This document shows positions 11,157-47,755 of a stretch of 64,000 nucleotides of DNA, in pieces; position 1 is the first letter of the stretch, and the number at the start of each line of letters is the position of its first letter. Source of the DNA: an uncultured Bryobacterales bacterium (GTDB taxonomy: Bacteria > Acidobacteriota > Terriglobia > Bryobacterales > UBA6623); contig CAYWUV010000006.1 of NCBI GenBank assembly GCA_964461235.1, forward strand, positions 11,468 to 75,467. The letters run 5' to 3'. The notes beneath the pieces are model-generated. The model worked only from the letters and a program-made list of their open reading frames with translations, made no database searches and was not told the origin of the DNA. Both the position numbers and the translations under genes were made by a program.

Positions 11157-12416
11157 CTAGGTCGCGGAGTCGTCCTTCATCCCGGGTGCCATCCTGCCCC
11201 GTCGGGCGTCCGATTCAACGGGCTGGACGCGAGCTTCCTCCCAGCGTGTTACGACGACAGGCGCCGCGCAGTGGCTCGCGACGTTCACGCTGGTCCGAAT
11301 CGGGTCGATCAGCGCATCGATGCCGAGCAGCACCCCCAGGCCCTCCATCGGCAGACCCTGGCCCTCGAACACTGCCGCAAGGATCACGAAGTTGGCGCGA
11401 GGCACTCCAGCCACGCCCTTGCTGGTCAGCTTCAGAGTGAGCAGTATCATCGCCTGACGCTCCCAGGAAAGCTCGATTCCTGCCGCCTGCGCCACAAAGA
11501 GCGTTCCCATGGCTAGGTGGATAGTGCTGCCGTTCAGGTTCAGGCTGAGGCTCAAGGGGGCGACAACGCCCAGGATGCGGCGCGGCACGCCGTACCGCTG
11601 CAAGTTCTCGAGCGTCTGGGGCAGGGCTGCGGCGCTCGAGGTTGTCGCGAATCCGACGAGGAACGGCTCACGCGCGAAGTGGGCGAACTTGCGCAAGGGG
11701 ACGCGGCACAGTGCCAGGCCGCCAGCAAGCACAATGACTAGGAAGGCACCCTGGACGATCCACGCTATGGCCGTGAACTCTGCAAGGCCTCCTAGGGTCG
11801 CTCCGCCCTCGGCGGCTACGGCGTTCGCCGCAGCCGAGAACACTGCGACCGGAGCTAGGTACATCACGTAGTCGGTGTAGCGGAAGGCCACTTCCGCTAA
11901 AGCGTCGGCAAAGTCCACTACGGGGCGGGCCCGCTCGCCCACCGCCAGGCACGCGATTCCGAAGAGGAAGCAGAAGACGACGATCTGCAGGACATCCCCC
12001 CTGGCCAGGGCATCGACGATGCTCGTGGGCACGGCGTTCTCGAGCGCATCGGCTAGGTCGGCGGTCTCCTGCGACTCCGAGCCCGGCTGGACGGCGAGTG
12101 ACAGACCCTTGCCGGGACCCGTCAGCTCCACGGCAAACCAACCCATGAGCAGGGCTACGGTCGTCGCAGCTTCGAAGCAAGCCGCGGACTTCCATCCCAA
12201 TCGGCCCAGAGCACCGAGGGAGCCGGCGCGGGCAATCGCGCGGATCAGCACTCCGACCAGTACAGGGGCGATGATCGACCGAATCAGCCGAAGGAACAGG
12301 GTGCTGAGGAACTGGATCCGCTCCGCCCAGTCCGGGGAGGCGAGACCGAGGCAGATGCCCGCCGCCATGGCGACCAGGATCCAGGAAGCGAGCGAGAGCT
12401 GGAACAGGCCGCGCAC
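11157..12416 (-). CDS. dicarboxylate/amino acid:cation symporter (DAACS/GltP family)
   Basis: 419 aa, polytopic membrane protein. It shows conserved DAACS stretches (FLRLIRSIIAPVLVGVLI, SSAAALPQT, NLNGSTIHLAMGTLFVAQA). Confidence 0.85.
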   Translation of the reverse strand: MRGLFQLSLASWILVAMAAGICLGLASPDWAERIQFLSTLFLRLIRSIIAPVLVGVLIRAIARAGSLGALGRLGWKSAACFEAATTVALLMGWFAVELTGPGKGLSLAVQPGSESQETADLADALENAVPTSIVDALARGDVLQIVVFCFLFGIACLAVGERARPVVDFADALAEVAFRYTDYVMYLAPVAVFSAAANAVAAEGGATLGGLAEFTAIAWIVQGAFLVIVLAGGLALCRVPLRKFAHFAREPFLVGFATTSSAAALPQTLENLQRYGVPRRILGVVAPLSLSLNLNGSTIHLAMGTLFVAQAAGIELSWERQAMILLTLKLTSKGVAGVPRANFVILAAVFEGQGLPMEGLGVLLGIDALIDPIRTSVNVASHCAAPVVVTRWEEARVQPVESDARRGRMAPGMKDDSAT

Positions 12417-12498
12417 GGAAGGATTGGGGGCGTTCCAGCGTACCAGCCCGACGCTTGGCAGGTTCCTCCGGTTCCCTACCCGGCCGTGGTCGGGAGAG

Positions 12499-13002
12499 CT
12501 ACTGCTCGTCGGCCGAGGGTCCGTACATGCCCGGAATGGCTACGTCGTTGATTCTCAGGTACACGCTCAGTTGCGCCCTGTGGTGAATGATGTGGTTCAG
12601 AACCATCGACTTCAGCACCGTGATTCGAGGCATCGTGAAGATCGGGTTCCCCCGCATTTTCAGAGTCCAGTCGACGCGCATCGCGTCGTCATCCAGCTTT
12701 GCGATCGCCTCCTTCGCTTGGGCGACTTGGCTGTCGAAGAACTCAAGAGTCGCCTCGCGGCTGGATGCTTCGAATGGCTCGAAAGGCCTCCCCTCGGGGG
12801 GCTGGATGTCCAGTTCGACCCGTTCCGCGGTAGGCACCCCCCATCCGGCCATTTCCGCTACATGGCCAGCAAGGCGTCCCATGGACATGGATCTTTCGTG
12901 CGGCTTGTAGTCCAGCGCTTCGTCGGGAACGCATTCCAGCATTCTCCTTGTGTTGCGCATCTCGTGGTCGAATTCGGCAAGGAAGACTTGGGCGATCGTC
13001 AT
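12499..13002 (-). CDS. DinB-family protein
   Basis: ORF 12499..13035, likely start MTIAQVFLAEFDHE at 13002. The four-helix DinB pattern includes LDYKPHERSMSMGRLAGHV and NHIIHHRAQL. Confidence 0.75.
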   Translation of the reverse strand: MTIAQVFLAEFDHEMRNTRRMLECVPDEALDYKPHERSMSMGRLAGHVAEMAGWGVPTAERVELDIQPPEGRPFEPFEASSREATLEFFDSQVAQAKEAIAKLDDDAMRVDWTLKMRGNPIFTMPRITVLKSMVLNHIIHHRAQLSVYLRINDVAIPGMYGPSADEQ

Positions 13003-13103
13003 ACCGGGGATTATAGACCGCAGGCCAGGGACCATCAGCTACGGGGCCTGATCGAGGACCCGACGATTCTGCATCAGCCGCCCGGTCCCCGTTCGGGACG
13101 TGA

Positions 13104-13931
13104 TTATGTACCTGCCCGCTTCCCTGCACGTAGCTGGCGATTCACCTCGAACAGCGCGATTCCCGTCGCGACCGAAACGTTGAGAGACGAGATGCTGCCC
13201 ACCAGCGGAATGCGGACAAGGAAGTCGCATCGCTCCGCCACCTTCGCTCGGAGGCCTCGGCTCTCGCCTCCCATCACGAGCGCGCTCCGACTCGCGTATT
13301 CGACAGCGTCGTAGTCGACTTTGGCCTCTTCATCGAAGCCGTACAGCCAGAAGCCCGATTCCTTCATTTGCTCGAGCGACCGTCCAAGGTTCTTGACCCG
13401 GACTACCGGAAGGGACTCCAGCGCTCCCGCAGCGGCCTTTGCCGTCGCCTCCGTCAGGCTCGCCGACCGTCTCTCCGGTATTACCGCAGCTGCGGCGCCG
13501 GCACCGTCCGCGGTTCGGATGATCGCGCCGAGGTTGTGCGGATCCTGGACCGAGTCAAGCACGACGAGCGTGCATTCCTCGCCCGCGCTTTCGAGGACTC
13601 CGTCGAGTGTTCGGAACGGGCTTGCTGTCGAGAGGGCAACGACGTTCTGGTGGGCACTTGTACCCGCGAGGCGCTGCATGGCCGAGCGCGATTCGAACCG
13701 AACGGGAATTCCGATCCGGCGGCATTCGTCGATTAACGGGAGCAGCCTGGCGTTCCTGGCGCCTTGGGTGACGACAACACTGTCGATTCCCGTGCCGGAC
13801 TCCCCCGCCGAGCGTAGCGCGGCCGAGACCGCGTGAATGCCGACCAATCGCCGCATGGCCTGAGGCTCATGATAGAGCGAAGTCGCTTCAGCGGAGGCGT
13901 TGCGCTCGAAGTCGCTGCTGTCGTGGGTCAA
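13104..13931 (-). CDS. rlmB: 23S rRNA (guanosine-2'-O)-methyltransferase, RlmB/TrmH (SpoU) family
   Basis: VVLDSVQDPHNLGAIIRTADGAGA, LVMGGESRGLR and SLNVSVATGIALFE are the SpoU motifs. The true start may be MRRLVGIHAV at 13856. Confidence 0.8.
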   Translation of the reverse strand: MTHDSSDFERNASAEATSLYHEPQAMRRLVGIHAVSAALRSAGESGTGIDSVVVTQGARNARLLPLIDECRRIGIPVRFESRSAMQRLAGTSAHQNVVALSTASPFRTLDGVLESAGEECTLVVLDSVQDPHNLGAIIRTADGAGAAAAVIPERRSASLTEATAKAAAGALESLPVVRVKNLGRSLEQMKESGFWLYGFDEEAKVDYDAVEYASRSALVMGGESRGLRAKVAERCDFLVRIPLVGSISSLNVSVATGIALFEVNRQLRAGKRAGT

Positions 13932-20675: not shown

Positions 20676-20853
20676 CTACGCAGGCCCGGCTTAGCGTAAT
20701 CCCTCAACTCAGCCCGCCGCGTGCGGCTTCCACCCGCATAGCGCTGCAATGCGATTTGCCCCAGTCTCCCCGGATAGGGTCCCGCCAAGGGATCGGTGCG
20801 CCGTTGCGGGAACGAGCCGCCGGCGATTCCAGTTGTCGCGGGCCAAGCACGGC

Positions 20854-22371
20854 CTATAGCTCCGGAAAGACGCCTGCCAGCCGGGGGTACAGTTCCTGGA
20901 ACACGGCATACGACCGGGCGTAGGTTTCTGCGAGTGTCCCATCAGGCTCTGTCCGTCGCTCCTCCGCGATCATCGTCCGGCAGGCTTCCTCGACCGAGCC
21001 GACATGACCCGTCCCGGCCATTGCCAGCAGAGCGGCTCCGTACGCGGAGCCCTCTTGCGTCTGCAGGGTCGCGATCGGCTTCTGGAAGACGTTCGCGAGG
21101 ATGCTCCGCCACAGCGAGGACTTCGCCCCTCCGCCTGAAGCCCTCACCGAGGAGACTTCCGCGCCCAGGGACTCGATGATGCCGAGACAGTCGTTCAGGC
21201 TGTAAGCCACCCCTTCGAGGATCGAGCGAACGAGGTGGCCTCGAGTGTGCTTCGCTGTGACCCCAATCCAGCCCCCACGGGCATAGGGGTCGAGGTGAGG
21301 GGTGCGCTCTCCCATGAGGTACGGGAGCCAGATCAGTCCCTCCGCGCCCGGAGGCACGTCCTCCGCCTCGGCGGTCAGCAGGTCGTAGATTTCGACGCCC
21401 TGGTCCTTCGCGGCATCCGCGAGCCCCGTCGCAAGCTGGTTCCGGAACCACTGCAGGCTCAGGCCGGCACCCTGCGTTACCCCCATGATGTGCCACTTGC
21501 CCGGCACCGCGTGGCAGAACGTGTGCACCCTTCCCGCCGGATCGTAGGCTGCCTCGTCCAAGTGCGAGAACACCACTCCCGACGTTCCGATAGTGCAGGA
21601 GACCAGACCGGATTCCACGATTCCGTTGCCGACCGCGCTGGCCGCTTGGTCGCCCGCACCCCCGACGACCGGAGTTCCGGCGGCGAGGCCGGTCTGCCTC
21701 GCGGCCTCCGCCGATACCGAGCCGGTCCGTTCCGGGGATTCCACGACCTCCGGTAGGATCGAGGCGTCGATACCGAGCTTGTCGATCAGAGGTCTCGCCC
21801 AGTGGCGCCCGACAACATCGAACAATGCTGTCCCGGAAGCGTCAGAGACCTCGCTCGCGAACTCGCCAGTCAGCATGAACCGGATGTAGTCCTTGGGCAG
21901 CAGCATCTTCCGGACGCGCTCGTAGCTCGCCGGATCGTGGTCGCGGACCCAGAGCAGCTTCGGGGCTGTGAAGCCCGTTAGCACCGGGTTGGCAGTCTGT
22001 TGGAGTACCATTTCCGGCCCGGCCTCCGTGTTGATCCAGTCGACCTGCTCCTGGCTGCGCTGGTCGCACCAGATGAGGGCAGGCCGAAGGACTTGGCTGT
22101 CGGAGTCCAGCAGGGTCAGGCCGTGCATCTGCCCCGAGAGACCGATGCCGGCAATGTCGCGGCCGCTCACGCCGGCCCGGGCCAAGACGCCTCGTACCGC
22201 CTCGCGGGCCGCGTTCCACCAATTCTCCGGCCGTTGCTCCGCCCAGAGAGGGCGTTCCATCCGAATGTCTTCGTGCGCGGCCGTCACCCCACACGCAACG
22301 CTGCCATCGGCCCGAACGAGAAGGGCGCGGGACCCTCCAGTGCCGATGTCGATTCCCAGCCAGTGACTCAT
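20854..22371 (-). CDS. xylB: xylulokinase (FGGY family)
   Basis: Real start is MSHWLGIDIGTGGSRALL at 22371 inside track ORF 20854..23211. It shows the FGGY kinase pattern. An ATGA start/stop overlap links it to the upstream plsC. Confidence 0.85.
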   Translation of the reverse strand: MSHWLGIDIGTGGSRALLVRADGSVACGVTAAHEDIRMERPLWAEQRPENWWNAAREAVRGVLARAGVSGRDIAGIGLSGQMHGLTLLDSDSQVLRPALIWCDQRSQEQVDWINTEAGPEMVLQQTANPVLTGFTAPKLLWVRDHDPASYERVRKMLLPKDYIRFMLTGEFASEVSDASGTALFDVVGRHWARPLIDKLGIDASILPEVVESPERTGSVSAEAARQTGLAAGTPVVGGAGDQAASAVGNGIVESGLVSCTIGTSGVVFSHLDEAAYDPAGRVHTFCHAVPGKWHIMGVTQGAGLSLQWFRNQLATGLADAAKDQGVEIYDLLTAEAEDVPPGAEGLIWLPYLMGERTPHLDPYARGGWIGVTAKHTRGHLVRSILEGVAYSLNDCLGIIESLGAEVSSVRASGGGAKSSLWRSILANVFQKPIATLQTQEGSAYGAALLAMAGTGHVGSVEEACRTMIAEERRTEPDGTLAETYARSYAVFQELYPRLAGVFPEL

Positions 22372-44386: not shown

Positions 44387-45154
44387 GTGCGGGCGTCCAG
44401 CCCGGTAGTGTCCATGAATTCAAGCTTTAGCGGGCAATCTGTCCCCGTCGACAAGCGCTTTGTCCTCTGCTATGCACCGGCAGCCGCGCACGAGGACTGG
44501 GACAAGTCCTATTACGCCGCTGCCCGTGCGCGCGAAGCGCTGGCAGCGATCCGCGACGATCTCGAATCGTTCTTCTGGCGCTTCGTCGTGACCCGACGGG
44601 TCGTCCCCGGCGCCCTGTCCCTTTTGGCTGCGATCGCGGTTCTCGCGTGGTGGGCCCTTTCCACCTTCGGACGGTGGACCGAGCTGGGATTCGCTGTGCG
44701 GTACCTCCCTCCGTTCGTCGCCTTGGTGTTCCTCGTGATCGCGAGCTCGCGCCTCGCGGCGTTCCGCAAGCGTCTCTCGATGTGGAGAGGTTCCTGCAAG
44801 GCGGTAGTCGCCGACGAGCTGGCCGCGATTCGCGAAATCGTCGAGACTCTCCCGGAAGACCCGGACGCGGAAGAGGCCGCCGAGGTCGTGCGACGGGAAT
44901 GCCCGGGCCCGATTTCCGAAATCGCCTTTTACGGCCACAACTTCAAGGCGTTCACGTATATGGATTTCGTGCTCAGCCCGAAGCTGCGGCACCCTGCCGA
45001 GAAGGCCGACCTGCCGCAGAAGCACAGTCTGTACCGCGACGCCTACTACGTGGGGGACGTGGTCTACGACAACTGGCGGATGTTCCAGAAGGACCGCCGG
45101 GCGCACGTGGACCCAAGGTTCGTGGGCAGTGGCGGCCGCCGGGGCGTGATCTAG
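44387..45154 (+). CDS. hypothetical membrane protein (two predicted TM helices)
   Basis: 255-aa ORF with hydrophobic stretches VVPGALSLLAAIAVLAWWAL and LPPFVALVFLVIASSRLAAF. I recognise no family. An alternative start is at 44414. Confidence 0.5.
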   Translation: MRASSPVVSMNSSFSGQSVPVDKRFVLCYAPAAAHEDWDKSYYAAARAREALAAIRDDLESFFWRFVVTRRVVPGALSLLAAIAVLAWWALSTFGRWTELGFAVRYLPPFVALVFLVIASSRLAAFRKRLSMWRGSCKAVVADELAAIREIVETLPEDPDAEEAAEVVRRECPGPISEIAFYGHNFKAFTYMDFVLSPKLRHPAEKADLPQKHSLYRDAYYVGDVVYDNWRMFQKDRRAHVDPRFVGSGGRRGVI

Positions 45155-46326
45155 CTTCCTGACTCCCGGGACCTGCGCAGGACCACGAGGGGGTGTTCCC
45201 GGTCCGTCAGGGGGAAGTCCTTGACCGCGTGGCCCAGCTGCGACGCATACATGCCCTGGGTCATCTCAATGGTCCAGCGCCCTGCACGCTCGCTGCAAGC
45301 GGGCTCCCGGTTCTGCTCGATGGAATCGAGCAGGTCTTCCACCATCAGGGCGTTCGCCGTCAGGTAGCGGTCGTCGCCGAAACTGCGGTGCTCAGGTTCG
45401 AGCGGCTCCCACTCATTGTCGTTGTCGGGTATCCACGCGGGGCTGCGCAGGATGAAGCCTTCCGAGTCCGCCCCGTAGATCTGATTGGGCAGGAAAATCC
45501 GCCCCTTGGTGCCGTAGACATGGGTGCCGAAGCGCCACGGGTGCGTCACGCCGGACTTCTTCGTGCCGAAGAAGCCATGCCGGCCGCTCCCGAAGGAGAA
45601 CATCGCACTCATCTGACGTCCGGCCACCGGCCCGATGGGCTCCCTGGGCTTGGTCAGGTGGTCGAACTCGAGTTCTTGGCCGTCCGTAGTGACATGCGCG
45701 AAGACCCACTGCGGATCGCCCAGGACCGCCCGCATCATGTCGAAAATGTGCGATCCCAGTACGACTAGGTCCTCCCCGCCCGCCCGGAAGTCTTCCTTGC
45801 CGCGGCCGCGAACCTCGTGGATTTCGCCGATCTCGCCCGCCGAGATCAGTGCGAGAGCCTTCAAGGTGAAGGGGGATCGGCGCATTTGATGCGCGATCTG
45901 GACCCTAACCCCGGCCTCGCGAATCGCCTTGACCATCCGGTCAGCGTCGGTGAGTGTTCCCGCGAACGGCTTCTCCAAGTACATATGACAGCCGGCCCGG
46001 GCGGCAGCCGTGACCATCTCCAGCCGCTGGTCGGTGTGCCGGGGGCAGATGCTGACGATGTCCGGCTTCTCCCTGTCCAGCAACTCGCGGTAGTCGGCGT
46101 ACGCCTTCCCCGCGCCAGTACGCTCCTGTGCTCTGGCCCGGCCCTCGGAGTCGGGGTCGGCCACTGCGACGACCTGGGTCTGCGGGAATGCAGGCCACAC
46201 GTCGCCGATCCCATGGCCGTAGTTTCCGCGGCCTGTATGGCCAATCACGCCCACCCGGTAGCGGGGCGCGGCGCGGAGGGGAACGGCCGCCGCGCCGGAG
46301 GCGGCCAGGAAGTGCCTGCGGAGCAT
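45151..46326 (-). CDS. Gfo/Idh/MocA-family oxidoreductase with Tat signal
   Basis: 391 aa. MLRRHFLAASGAAAVPLRAA is a twin-arginine signal. YRVGVIGHTGRGNYGH is a Rossmann N-terminus. Confidence 0.85.
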   Translation of the reverse strand: MLRRHFLAASGAAAVPLRAAPRYRVGVIGHTGRGNYGHGIGDVWPAFPQTQVVAVADPDSEGRARAQERTGAGKAYADYRELLDREKPDIVSICPRHTDQRLEMVTAAARAGCHMYLEKPFAGTLTDADRMVKAIREAGVRVQIAHQMRRSPFTLKALALISAGEIGEIHEVRGRGKEDFRAGGEDLVVLGSHIFDMMRAVLGDPQWVFAHVTTDGQELEFDHLTKPREPIGPVAGRQMSAMFSFGSGRHGFFGTKKSGVTHPWRFGTHVYGTKGRIFLPNQIYGADSEGFILRSPAWIPDNDNEWEPLEPEHRSFGDDRYLTANALMVEDLLDSIEQNREPACSERAGRWTIEMTQGMYASQLGHAVKDFPLTDREHPLVVLRRSRESGS

Positions 46327-46395
46327 GGCCCGACTATACCAGCAGGGGGTCCCGGAAGGGGCCGGGACACAATCGCCGGGCCGGGGGCCGTGGGG

Positions 46396-46839
46396 CTATT
46401 CTTCGGGGTGGACCACCGCCTTGCCGGCGGCCTTCCAGGCCTCGATGCCCCCTGACTGGATCTCGCCCTCGTAGCCGTTGTCGCGAAGGATGGCCGCCGC
46501 ACGGGAGGCCCTGCCGCCGCGCCGTCAATAGGCCACGATCGGCTTGTCCGTCGGGACTTCCGCCAGTCGCGCCTCCAGCTCGTCGATGGGAATGTGCAAG
46601 TAGCCCTCGATCGCCCCGTCCGTGACGAGTTCCTCGTGAGTCCGCACGTCCAGAAGAGTGATCTCCTCGCCGGCTGCCAGTCGTGCCGACACCTGCTCCA
46701 CGTCCAGCTCCGTCGCTTCGACCGGCGGACTCTCCGCTGGCTCCGTTGCGGCAGCATCCTCGGGTTCCGGCGCGCCTTGGCAGGCCACCACCGTCAAGGC
46801 GAATGCCGCTAGAATTGCTGCCCGGATTACGCGTCTCAT
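46396..46839 (-). CDS. rhodanese-domain lipoprotein with an in-frame TGA (46525..46527) at the catalytic Cys position: selenocysteine candidate or fresh pseudogene
   Basis: ORF 46525..46839 ends ...DKPIVAY-TGA. The same frame continues RRGGRASRAAAILRDNGYEGEIQSGGIEAWKAAGKAVVHPEE-TAG (stop at 46396..46398). This is the rest of a rhodanese domain. The N-terminal lipobox is LTVVAC. Confidence 0.7.
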
Positions 46840-46852
46840 GGAACGCTCCTTT

Positions 46853-47755
46853 CTAGGCTCCCCAGCCCCGTGTCGAGGCCTCGGGGATCTTTCGGATCAG
46901 GTCCGCTAGCTCGTACCTGTTCTCGGCTCCGATCGTGAAGCAGTCGATGCAGTCCAGCGCCATCGCGTGCTGCAACGCTTCGCCGACGCGGTTGCGCAGG
47001 ACTCCTTCGCCGAGGATCTTCATGCCGATCACGCCCTTGCCGGCGGCCTTGATCTTGCACAACTCCTCGACCACGGTCGCCGGGTCGGCGTCCATCCTCG
47101 CACCGACCGCGTTGACACGTGCCAAGTCCACGTCAATGAACTCCTGCTTGTGCACCTGCTGGAGTGCCGGAAGGGAGTGGCACGAGATACCCCGGGACCG
47201 AACGAGTCCCTTCTGCTTGTATTCGTTGATCACATCCATCGCGCCAGCGCGCTGGACGGGCCAGTCCTGCTCCTGGACCGCATGCAGCAGGAGCAAGTCG
47301 ATGTAGTCCGTCCCCAGCTCCCTCCGGAAGCGCTCGATATCGTCGCGCATGCCCTTGGCCGTCTTCGAGGTGGACTTGGTCATGATGACCACCTTTTCGC
47401 GGGGGATGTGCTGGAGCGCAGTCTTGAGGTGCGGATGGCTGCCGTAGCCGTCCGCGGTGTCCCAGAAGGTGACGCCGTTGTCGAAGCCGAATTGGTAAAG
47501 GTCGACGATACCGCGAACTCCGAGCTTGCGCGTCTGGTTGGACGCCCCCCGGAATCCGCTCGTCCCTGTTCCCATGGCGAGCCTCGACGGACGCAGGCCG
47601 TGCGGTCCAAGAGAGACCGTGTCCTGGGCATACCGTCTCGTCGGGTTCTCGGAATAACCCGTCGTAGCCCCGAACAGATGCTGCTGGACAGCGGCTACCG
47701 GGGCTCCGGCGGCCAGAGCATGACGAATGAAGTCCCGTCGCTTCATGGTGGACAT
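46853..47755 (-). CDS. aldo/keto reductase with Tat signal
   Basis: 300 aa. MSTMKRRDFIRHALAAGAPVAA is a twin-arginine signal. The AKR pattern is FWDTADGYG...IDLLLLH. Confidence 0.85.
   Translation of the reverse strand: MSTMKRRDFIRHALAAGAPVAAVQQHLFGATTGYSENPTRRYAQDTVSLGPHGLRPSRLAMGTGTSGFRGASNQTRKLGVRGIVDLYQFGFDNGVTFWDTADGYGSHPHLKTALQHIPREKVVIMTKSTSKTAKGMRDDIERFRRELGTDYIDLLLLHAVQEQDWPVQRAGAMDVINEYKQKGLVRSRGISCHSLPALQQVHKQEFIDVDLARVNAVGARMDADPATVVEELCKIKAAGKGVIGMKILGEGVLRNRVGEALQHAMALDCIDCFTIGAENRYELADLIRKIPEASTRGWGA

Follow-up and report, generated by a model that had tools for sequence, protein, structure and literature searches.

Rhodanese-related sulfurtransferase selenoproteins were first predicted from the Sargasso Sea (three genes; Zhang, Fomenko & Gladyshev 2005) and are abundant in Olavius symbionts. 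A 2026 review (PMC13188914) lists five forms of rhodanese selenoproteins, of which forms 2 and 4 are described as 'rhodanese-like domain-containing protein' with a U-x-x-G motif (U, selenocysteine, Sec) and the Pfam domain PF00581. This study deals with a rhodanese gene in a stretch of 64,000 nucleotides from an uncultured Bryobacterales bacterium (GenBank assembly GCA_964461235.1, contig CAYWUV010000006.1, positions 11,468 to 75,467 of the forward strand; hereafter the window, whose numbering is used throughout). Judged by comparative sequence analysis, the in-frame UGA at 46527..46525 is very probably the selenocysteine codon of a rhodanese lipoprotein of 147 residues. The initial annotation had proposed either such a selenoprotein or a very recent TGC-to-TGA nonsense mutation. 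The former is supported and the latter is rejected by 31 orthologues with TGA, a constrained tail and a hairpin specific to the Sec forms.

The catalogued precedents agree with the earlier remark that rhodanese-related sulfurtransferases are among the known Sec/Cys families. Like forms 2 and 4, the window gene encodes a single PF00581 domain with Sec in place of the catalytic cysteine in a U-x-x-G motif (here U-R-R-G), has widespread Cys homologues, and carries a bacterial selenocysteine insertion sequence (bSECIS)-like element just past the UGA. By motif and description, it most probably belongs with these forms, whose listed representatives are MBM9537886.1 and MCY3690685.1. In contrast to the descriptions of the catalogued forms, the family of the window is found in Bryobacterales, has a lipoprotein signal and an acidic, proline-containing linker, and in one clade lies between genes of oxidoreductases exported by the twin-arginine (Tat) pathway. 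The literature on rhodanese selenoproteins that was examined holds no mention of a lipoprotein, the periplasm or Bryobacter. Another rhodanese selenoprotein family with a curated model, NF041203 (rhodanese_LYCAU (seleno)protein, form 3), has Sec at a different position (CxU); the window protein is not a member, as it scores 27.2 bits against a cut-off of 115 and has no CxU motif.

Similarities were also found to E. coli PspE and Wolinella Sud, which are small, exported, single-domain rhodaneses with one catalytic residue in a loop of the C-x-x-G-x-R type. The PspE model NF007627 was matched with E=9e-7, below its cut-off, and the structure 1qxn (Sud, a polysulfide-sulfur transferase) with E=1.5e-8. 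Whereas PspE and Sud are soluble periplasmic Cys proteins, the window protein is predicted to be a lipid-anchored Sec protein. Assignment as a PspE/GlpE orthologue was rejected (29 bits against an equivalog cut-off of 102).

The TGA on the minus strand follows directly after an open reading frame of 104 amino acids (46839..46525) with the C-terminus ...TDKPIVAY, and the same frame runs on for 42 codons (RRGGRASRAAAILRDNGYEGEIQSGGIEAWKAAGKAVVHPEE) to a TAG at 46398..46396. The sequence and its translation thus bear out the initial annotation of this arrangement, and the RNA it had quoted from the 3' side of the UGA (CGGCGCGGCGGCAGGGCCUCCCGUGCGGCGGCC) matches the sequence exactly. The features of the gene are as follows.

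46396..46839, minus strand: complete predicted selenoprotein gene of 147 codons, with ATG at 46839, Sec-UGA as codon 105 and the true stop TAG at 46398..46396; the layout is the same in 31 orthologues.
46525..46527, minus strand: in-frame UGA at the catalytic position (U105), predicted to be read as Sec from the TGA/Cys-codon column and the rhodanese structure alignment.
46492..46510, minus strand: bSECIS-like apical hairpin, with the 5' arm GGCCUCC (46510..46504), the loop CGUGC (46503..46499) and the 3' arm GGCGGCC (46498..46492).
46396..46524, minus strand: coding segment after the UGA, 42 codons and TAG, which encodes the active-site loop RRGGRAS and the C-terminal portion of the fold.
46426..46701, minus strand: rhodanese homology domain, residues 47-138 (Pfam PF00581; rhodanese domains in the PDB).
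46780..46839, minus strand: pattern-based lipoprotein signal peptide with the lipobox VVAC; the Cys20 codon is at 46782..46780 and a Pro/Glu/Ala-rich linker comes next.
46846..46850, minus strand: Shine-Dalgarno-like AGGAG, 6 nt 5' of the ATG, within the 13-nt gap behind an aldo/keto reductase gene.

The G+C content at third codon positions was 0.85 in the 40 codons that precede the TGA and 0.93 in those that follow, in line with the earlier observation that it stays high. A sequencing error as the source of the TGA was ruled out, because an identical product of 104 amino acids recurs on seven contigs, including assemblies from three separate sequencing runs.

For the domain searches, cysteine was put in place of the TGA. 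The Pfam Rhodanese model PF00581 spans the TGA (residues 47-138, model positions 2-102 of 102) with E=1.6e-14 and 54.6 bits, compared to a gathering cut-off of 22.2, and rhodanese domains in the PDB match the window protein with E-values down to 2.6e-12. The TGA column corresponds to the catalytic cysteine of solved rhodaneses (3tp9, vYCRTGGRS; 4ocg, iFCQVGLRG), and the active-site loop U-R-R-G-G-R is of the six-residue C-x-x-G-x-R sulfurtransferase type with Sec in first place. Both the position of the TGA at the catalytic cysteine and the reading of the remainder as the normal C-terminal half of the domain, as initially annotated, are upheld by this alignment and by the PF00581 match, which crosses the TGA and runs to residue 138. 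The nearest solved or curated relatives are the rhodanese domains of MoeB/MoeZ, CoA-disulfide reductases, Sud, PspE, GlpE and ChrE. As all of these score under the family cut-offs, no specific substrate can be assigned; similarly, no NCBIfam model attains its cut-off for this rhodanese subfamily.

The N-terminus (MRRVIRAAILAAFALTVVAC) carries a lipobox fitting the pattern [LVI][ASTVI][GAS]C, and its cysteine, Cys20, is invariant across an alignment of 38 homologues, which is consistent with the earlier lipoprotein call. A loose lipobox pattern was found in 41 of 55 family members, a few of these matches being clearly spurious. The rhodanese is accordingly predicted to be an exported, lipid-anchored lipoprotein.

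Related loci were taken from genomes and metagenomes of Bryobacterales and other Acidobacteriota, mostly metagenome-assembled genomes, with a number of megabase-sized contigs or complete chromosomes among them. The TGA form is found on the complete Bryobacterales chromosomes OZ245359.1, OZ241376.1, OZ242276.1, OZ252030.1, OY282420.1 and OZ252029.1, and a Cys form on OZ244172.1. The protein search returned two kinds of close homologues, about 25 clusters of 94-113 residues and full-length proteins of about 150 residues. All 23 of the short clusters that were aligned stop exactly at ...VAY, where the full-length homologues read Y-C-x-x-G-G-R-A. At the DNA level, the catalytic codon is TGA in 31 distinct orthologous genes, that is, in every short form, and TGC or TGT in 19 distinct family members from sister lineages; this is the orthologue column that the initial annotation had named as a check. 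The protein identity of the Sec forms to the window protein falls to ~45-50%, and in a neighbour-joining tree they make up three clades with Cys forms between them. With TGA in 31 diverged genes and TGC/TGT in sister lineages, the family represents a classic Sec/Cys pair and not a private mutation, and the recurrence of TGA in one column of 31 distinct orthologues lies far beyond chance.

The frame after the UGA is open for 41-52 codons in all Sec forms, with lengths as in the Cys forms, and has acquired neither stops nor frameshifts. The ratio of nonsynonymous to synonymous differences (pN/pS) was 0.41 downstream of the UGA, compared to 0.32 over 39 codons upstream. The motif U-x-x-G is present in all Sec forms, with R, Q, N or M at position +1, R or G at +2 and G at +3. 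The segment behind the UGA is translated and under purifying selection.

A hairpin, GGCCUCC[CGUGC]GGCGGCC, starts 14 nt past the UGA, its loop starting 21 nt past the UGA, and has a fold energy of -10.1 kcal/mol. In the window, the stem consists of six regular pairs and one U.C mismatch. Its conservation is most readily seen in the codons after the UGA of 25 Sec forms, where GCC is used at +6 (24/25), UCC at +7 (22/25), CGU at +8 (25/25), GCG at +9 (23/25) and GCG at +10 (22/25). Conserved residues in the flanks have mixed codons, such as Pro -9 (CCC 12, CCG 8, CCU 5) and Gly +3 (GGC 11, GGU 11, GGA 3). In the Cys forms, the codons for the same A-S-R-A-A vary freely, and CGU is never found at +8. 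Over the hairpin codons, synonymous diversity was 0.25, compared to 0.53-0.67 in the flanks.

Covariation was assessed on 27 distinct Sec-form sequences with 500 shuffles and slid registers. Pairing was found for 85% of the alignment cells, compared to 44-60% in slid registers, and none of the 500 shuffles attained the observed values. Changes on both sides were observed in four of the seven pairs: 18-36 (GC/AU/GU), 21-33 (CG/UA/UG), 24-30 (CG/GC) and 22-32 (mismatch/GC/UG). In genes of the L037 type, AGCCGCG[CGUGC]CGCGGCU forms a perfect stem of 7 bp in which three pairs are changed and the loop is unchanged. The loop CGUGC is present in 26 of the 27 Sec forms vs 1 of 19 Cys forms, and all six regular pairs can form in 24 of 27 vs 1 of 19.

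The bSECIS model (PMC13188914) allows a loop of 3-9 nt, an upper stem of 4-16 bp, a distance of 16-37 nt from UGA to loop and a minimum free energy (MFE) of at most -7.5 kcal/mol, and requires a G as the first or second loop nucleotide, as a rule with G or U next to it. The hairpin agrees with every one of these constraints: its loop of 5 nt has G in second place and then U, its stem comprises 6-7 pairs, the loop is 21 nt from the UGA, and the energy is -10.1 kcal/mol. It resembles the E. coli fdhF-type SECIS and the bSECIS consensus (Zhang & Gladyshev 2005, summarised in the same review) in the following respects: it is part of the coding sequence directly 3' of the UGA, G is followed by U in its small apical loop, a U in the 5' strand of the upper stem is unpaired, and the spacing is in the range of 16-37 nt. 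The SECIS of E. coli fdhF has the loop GGUC with G23/U24 and a bulged U17. By comparison, the loop described here is CGUGC, and its distance from the UGA is greater by about one codon; the unpaired U is opposite a C in a 1x1 mismatch instead of being bulged, and gives way to a regular pair in L014 and L037. Furthermore, no conserved lower stem was found and there is no match to an Rfam family: neither the window at the gathering threshold nor a permissive scan of 46380..46560 gave anything relevant. An extended lower stem in the MFE fold of the window, C4-G8 with U39-G43, was dropped as it is not conserved in L008-L012.

Several further traits of the Sec genes were recorded. The Tyr codon just 5' of the UGA (window 46528..46530) is TAT in all 24 Tyr-bearing Sec forms and TAC in 9 of 10 tabulated Cys forms, in GC-rich genomes; this preference suggests selection on the nucleotide context of the Sec codon. 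The true stop of the Sec-rhodanese genes is TAG in 26 of 31 and TGA in 4 of 31, though TGA ends 54% of the neighbouring genes, and the base after the Sec-UGA is C in 18 genes, A in 13, and G or U in none; neither set of counts is phylogenetically independent. Hairpin position and loop are common to all three Sec clades despite the Cys forms between them on the tree, and the loop sequence CGTGC persists in one of the Cys forms, L085. Three Sec clades with one hairpin hint that Sec is ancestral and was repeatedly replaced by Cys, or that the gene was transferred.

TGA is the stop codon of 28 of 52 called genes on the window-identical contig and those of relatives, and is the commonest ordinary stop there. 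For this reason, a genome-wide reassignment does not apply, and any recoding of the rhodanese UGA must be local. A search for the required machinery had been proposed in the initial annotation. It yielded nothing in the window, while SelB was found on megabase contigs of relatives with a TGA-rhodanese, and SelA, SelB and a Sec-containing FdhA are on record for Solibacter usitatus, a member of Bryobacterales (SelA, SelB and two fdhA selenoprotein entries in the supplement of Zhang et al. 2006, PMC1794560). ARAGORN detected no tRNA-Sec in the window or in 39 loci. When 1.78 Mb of related loci was searched by tblastn with the E. coli proteins SelA, SelB and SelD, the only hit was one weak SelA-like pyridoxal phosphate (PLP) protein. 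This protein (L023 12699..13442, minus strand; 24% identity over 281 residues, E=7e-5 vs E. coli SelA) is encoded at a Cys-form locus and is probably another PLP enzyme.

With the Solibacter SelB as query, the best 120 of thousands of homologues were all soil Solibacter-like, and none was on a rhodanese contig. A 'selenocysteine-specific translation elongation factor [Bryobacterales bacterium]' (P0270) was found via 50%-identity representatives and cluster look-ups and was then used as query, which revealed full-length SelB with the SelB-specific domains PF09106 and PF09107 on five relevant contigs of relatives. On one of these, ena:ERZ24894574:ctg6951c (5,785,583 bp), SelB P0531 at 3.53 Mb and the TGA-rhodanese P0018 at 5.04 Mb are in the same record, and the rhodanese gene is in the same order of aldo/keto reductase, rhodanese and Gfo/Idh/MocA oxidoreductase as in the window. 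This pairing was made by record name; the four others, given below, were made by equal size in bp only.

SelB P0511, contig of 6,185,587 bp: the equal-sized contig has TGA-rhodanese P0032.
SelB P0542, contig of 5,674,858 bp: the equal-sized contig has TGA-rhodanese P0022.
SelB P0546, contig of 5,890,997 bp: the equal-sized contig has TGA-rhodanese P0036.
SelB P0559, contig of 4,444,042 bp: the equal-sized contig is L007, chromosome OZ241376.1, with a TGA-rhodanese.

No selA, selD or tRNA-Sec gene was linked to selB in the selB neighbourhoods of relatives that were examined. A comparison by shared samples gave no tie between a SelB and the genome of the window itself. DDE-transposase genes occur near both the rhodanese gene and selB on ctg6951c: DruA-associated ones in L166 (3961..5844) and at the end of L167, and one of the DDE_Tnp_1_4 type adjoining selB; the coordinates of the L167 DDE-transposase genes are 12165..13586 and 20818..21905. 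The SelA and SelB entries of Solibacter usitatus (PMC1794560, supplement 3) have long spurious N-terminal extensions. That of SelA, GEWIRTTGLLVPNQALYQAEPRPE, appears to be the translation of a tRNA-like sequence, as would be expected if a tRNA gene, possibly selC, were located just upstream of selA in that genome. A scan for further in-frame TGAs in the window, based on third-position GC, gave antisense artefacts only. Other 'all-Cys' hits of a Sec/Cys-pair finder were rejected, as their GC periodicity was out of frame.

The orthologue, SECIS and machinery tests each favour Sec. A number of observations nevertheless weigh against this assignment. The energy of the hairpin is ordinary for a GC-rich sequence (z = -0.44 for the 21-mer), and the MFE fold of the single sequence, taken over 91 nt around the UGA, is no better than shuffled sequences (z = +0.76). 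The element was detected only through comparative data and the codon table. The initial annotation had not established a canonical SECIS by eye; the comparative analysis yields a conserved apical hairpin within the bSECIS constraints. RNAalifold, run on the 27 sequences, prefers another helix (columns 7-11 with 24-28); this helix was rejected, as it shows no covariation and is disrupted in L037. Few independent events (lineages L014, L032, L037 and L092) underlie the covariation of the hairpin, and its loop departs from the commonest loop pattern of bSECIS elements in the detail of N1-N2 pairing. Furthermore, neither the window nor the 1.78 Mb of related loci contains a sel gene or tRNA-Sec, and the Sec/Cys-pair finder recovered only the rhodanese family over the related loci, with no independent second selenoprotein.

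Three other explanations of the UGA were weighed. A pseudogene, formed by a recent TGC-to-TGA nonsense mutation in a Cys-rhodanese whose downstream frame has not yet decayed, would need a change of one base only, and would agree with the truncated hypothetical proteins of 104/105 amino acids in GenBank and with a window devoid of Sec machinery. It was rejected, with a chance close to nil, because a conserved TGA, a constrained tail and a matching length cannot arise from it: the TGA is common to 31 distinct genes in three neighbour-joining clades with identities down to ~45-50%, the downstream frame is under purifying selection without stops or frameshifts, and a conserved hairpin is specific to the Sec forms. 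That the UGA is a genuine terminator, with a functional fragment of 104 residues or a selenium-independent attenuator and with the hairpin as an mRNA stability or regulatory element, appears very improbable. TGA is indeed the commonest stop in these genomes and gene callers end there, but a product of 104 residues would end ahead of the active-site loop, with the final third of the rhodanese fold missing, amino-acid-level constraint and Cys-form length over the 42 downstream codons would be unexpected in an untranslated segment, and distance and loop of the hairpin are as expected of a SECIS.

The third explanation, recoding of the UGA to a residue other than Sec by a SelB-dependent Cys tRNA of the selC* type, an opal-suppressing allo-tRNA, or hairpin-stimulated near-cognate read-through (Cys, Trp or other), concerns the identity of the inserted amino acid, which sequence analysis does not distinguish. 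Acidobacterial allo-tRNAs, possible nonsense suppressors, and a selC* tRNA-Cys mimicking tRNA-Sec have been described (Mukai et al., PMC5389517), and the window and 39 loci yielded no tRNA-Sec. The same paper, however, places selC* in Firmicutes, Thermodesulfobacteria, Nitrospirae and Proteobacteria, not in Acidobacteria. The site is that of a catalytic cysteine, at which Sec and Cys regularly replace each other, and the hairpin lies within the constraints of a SelB-type bSECIS. One relative encodes SelB on the very contig of its TGA-rhodanese, and for four more SelB is on contigs of equal size. Insertion of Cys via UGA would also bring no evident advantage over the TGC used by sister lineages. 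We regard such recoding as unlikely. There is likewise only a slim chance that reading by an acidobacterial allo-tRNA or a SelB-dependent Cys-tRNA makes the full-length rhodanese a conditional product only, and the UGA a regulated read-through switch across the order.

For the preferred assignment as a Sec codon, we infer the following route. The hairpin 14 nt downstream of the UGA would act as a bacterial SECIS, and SelB with GTP and Sec-tRNA(Sec) would bind its apical loop, with G-U at loop positions 2-3. At the A site of the ribosome, the Sec thus delivered would compete with release factor 2 (RF2), and translation would then continue for 42 codons to the TAG. The product, with a mature form of about 128 residues (about 85 if translation ended at the UGA), is predicted to be exported, lipidated at Cys20 and anchored on the periplasmic face, where the selenolate of the U-R-R-G-G-R loop probably takes up and passes on sulfane sulfur (or selenium) via an Se-S intermediate. 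The Sec residue would be expected to be more nucleophilic, and harder to inactivate by over-oxidation, than the Cys of periplasmic PspE and Sud.

The genes on either side of the rhodanese gene in the window are the following.

46853..47755, minus strand: aldo/keto reductase (PF00248) with the twin-arginine signal KRRDFI, upstream neighbour at a gap of 13 nt.
45151..46326, minus strand: Gfo/Idh/MocA oxidoreductase (PF01408/PF02894) with the twin-arginine signal LRRHFL, downstream neighbour.

The aldo/keto reductase and rhodanese genes are probably co-transcribed. Of 23 Sec-form genome loci, 18 have an aldo/keto reductase gene immediately upstream and 16 a Gfo/Idh/MocA oxidoreductase gene downstream; none of the 10 Cys-form loci has the aldo/keto reductase gene. 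The trio of aldo/keto reductase, Sec-rhodanese and Gfo/Idh/MocA oxidoreductase (45151..47755, minus strand) was also observed in L001-L022 and L166, with DUF1080 (3-keto-disaccharide hydrolase) and DinB genes upstream. Deeper Sec lineages and all Cys forms are in other contexts with no consistent partner gene, which argues against an obligatory partner. A milder alternative to the read-through switch would be a true selenoprotein that constitutes a dedicated periplasmic module together with the two Tat-exported oxidoreductases. Outside the main clade, a LysR-type regulator gene is located directly upstream of the rhodanese gene at one Sec-form and one Cys-form locus (L026 8856..9743 and L028 9028..9909), and a low-molecular-weight phosphatase/ArsC-like gene is nearby in L026.

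The gene is systematically misannotated, as databases and gene callers give a hypothetical protein of 104 residues without the catalytic site. Examples are GenBank MDE0127899.1, MDE0629057.1 and MDE0108075.1 (in the clusters of P0122 and P0134), which are listed as 'hypothetical protein [Bryobacterales bacterium]' of 104/105 residues and are cut at the Sec codon. The 31 Sec and 19 Cys sequences could underpin a curated model with a Sec exception. Rhodanese selenoproteins of the UxxG kind were known already; new is an unannotated lipoprotein subfamily of Bryobacterales. Current understanding is not overturned, and the value of the finding lies mainly in annotation and in studies of Sec/Cys exchange.

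In 2006, the selenoproteome of Acidobacteria comprised three families and four proteins, and the rhodanese subfamily would add one family to the small set known for this phylum, with a predicted lipid-anchored, extracytoplasmic selenoenzyme of sulfur transfer. The near-invariant CGUGC loop is a probable recognition target of the Bryobacterales SelB. With Sec and Cys forms interleaved in one order, the family would offer a natural system for studying retention versus replacement of Sec at the rhodanese active site.

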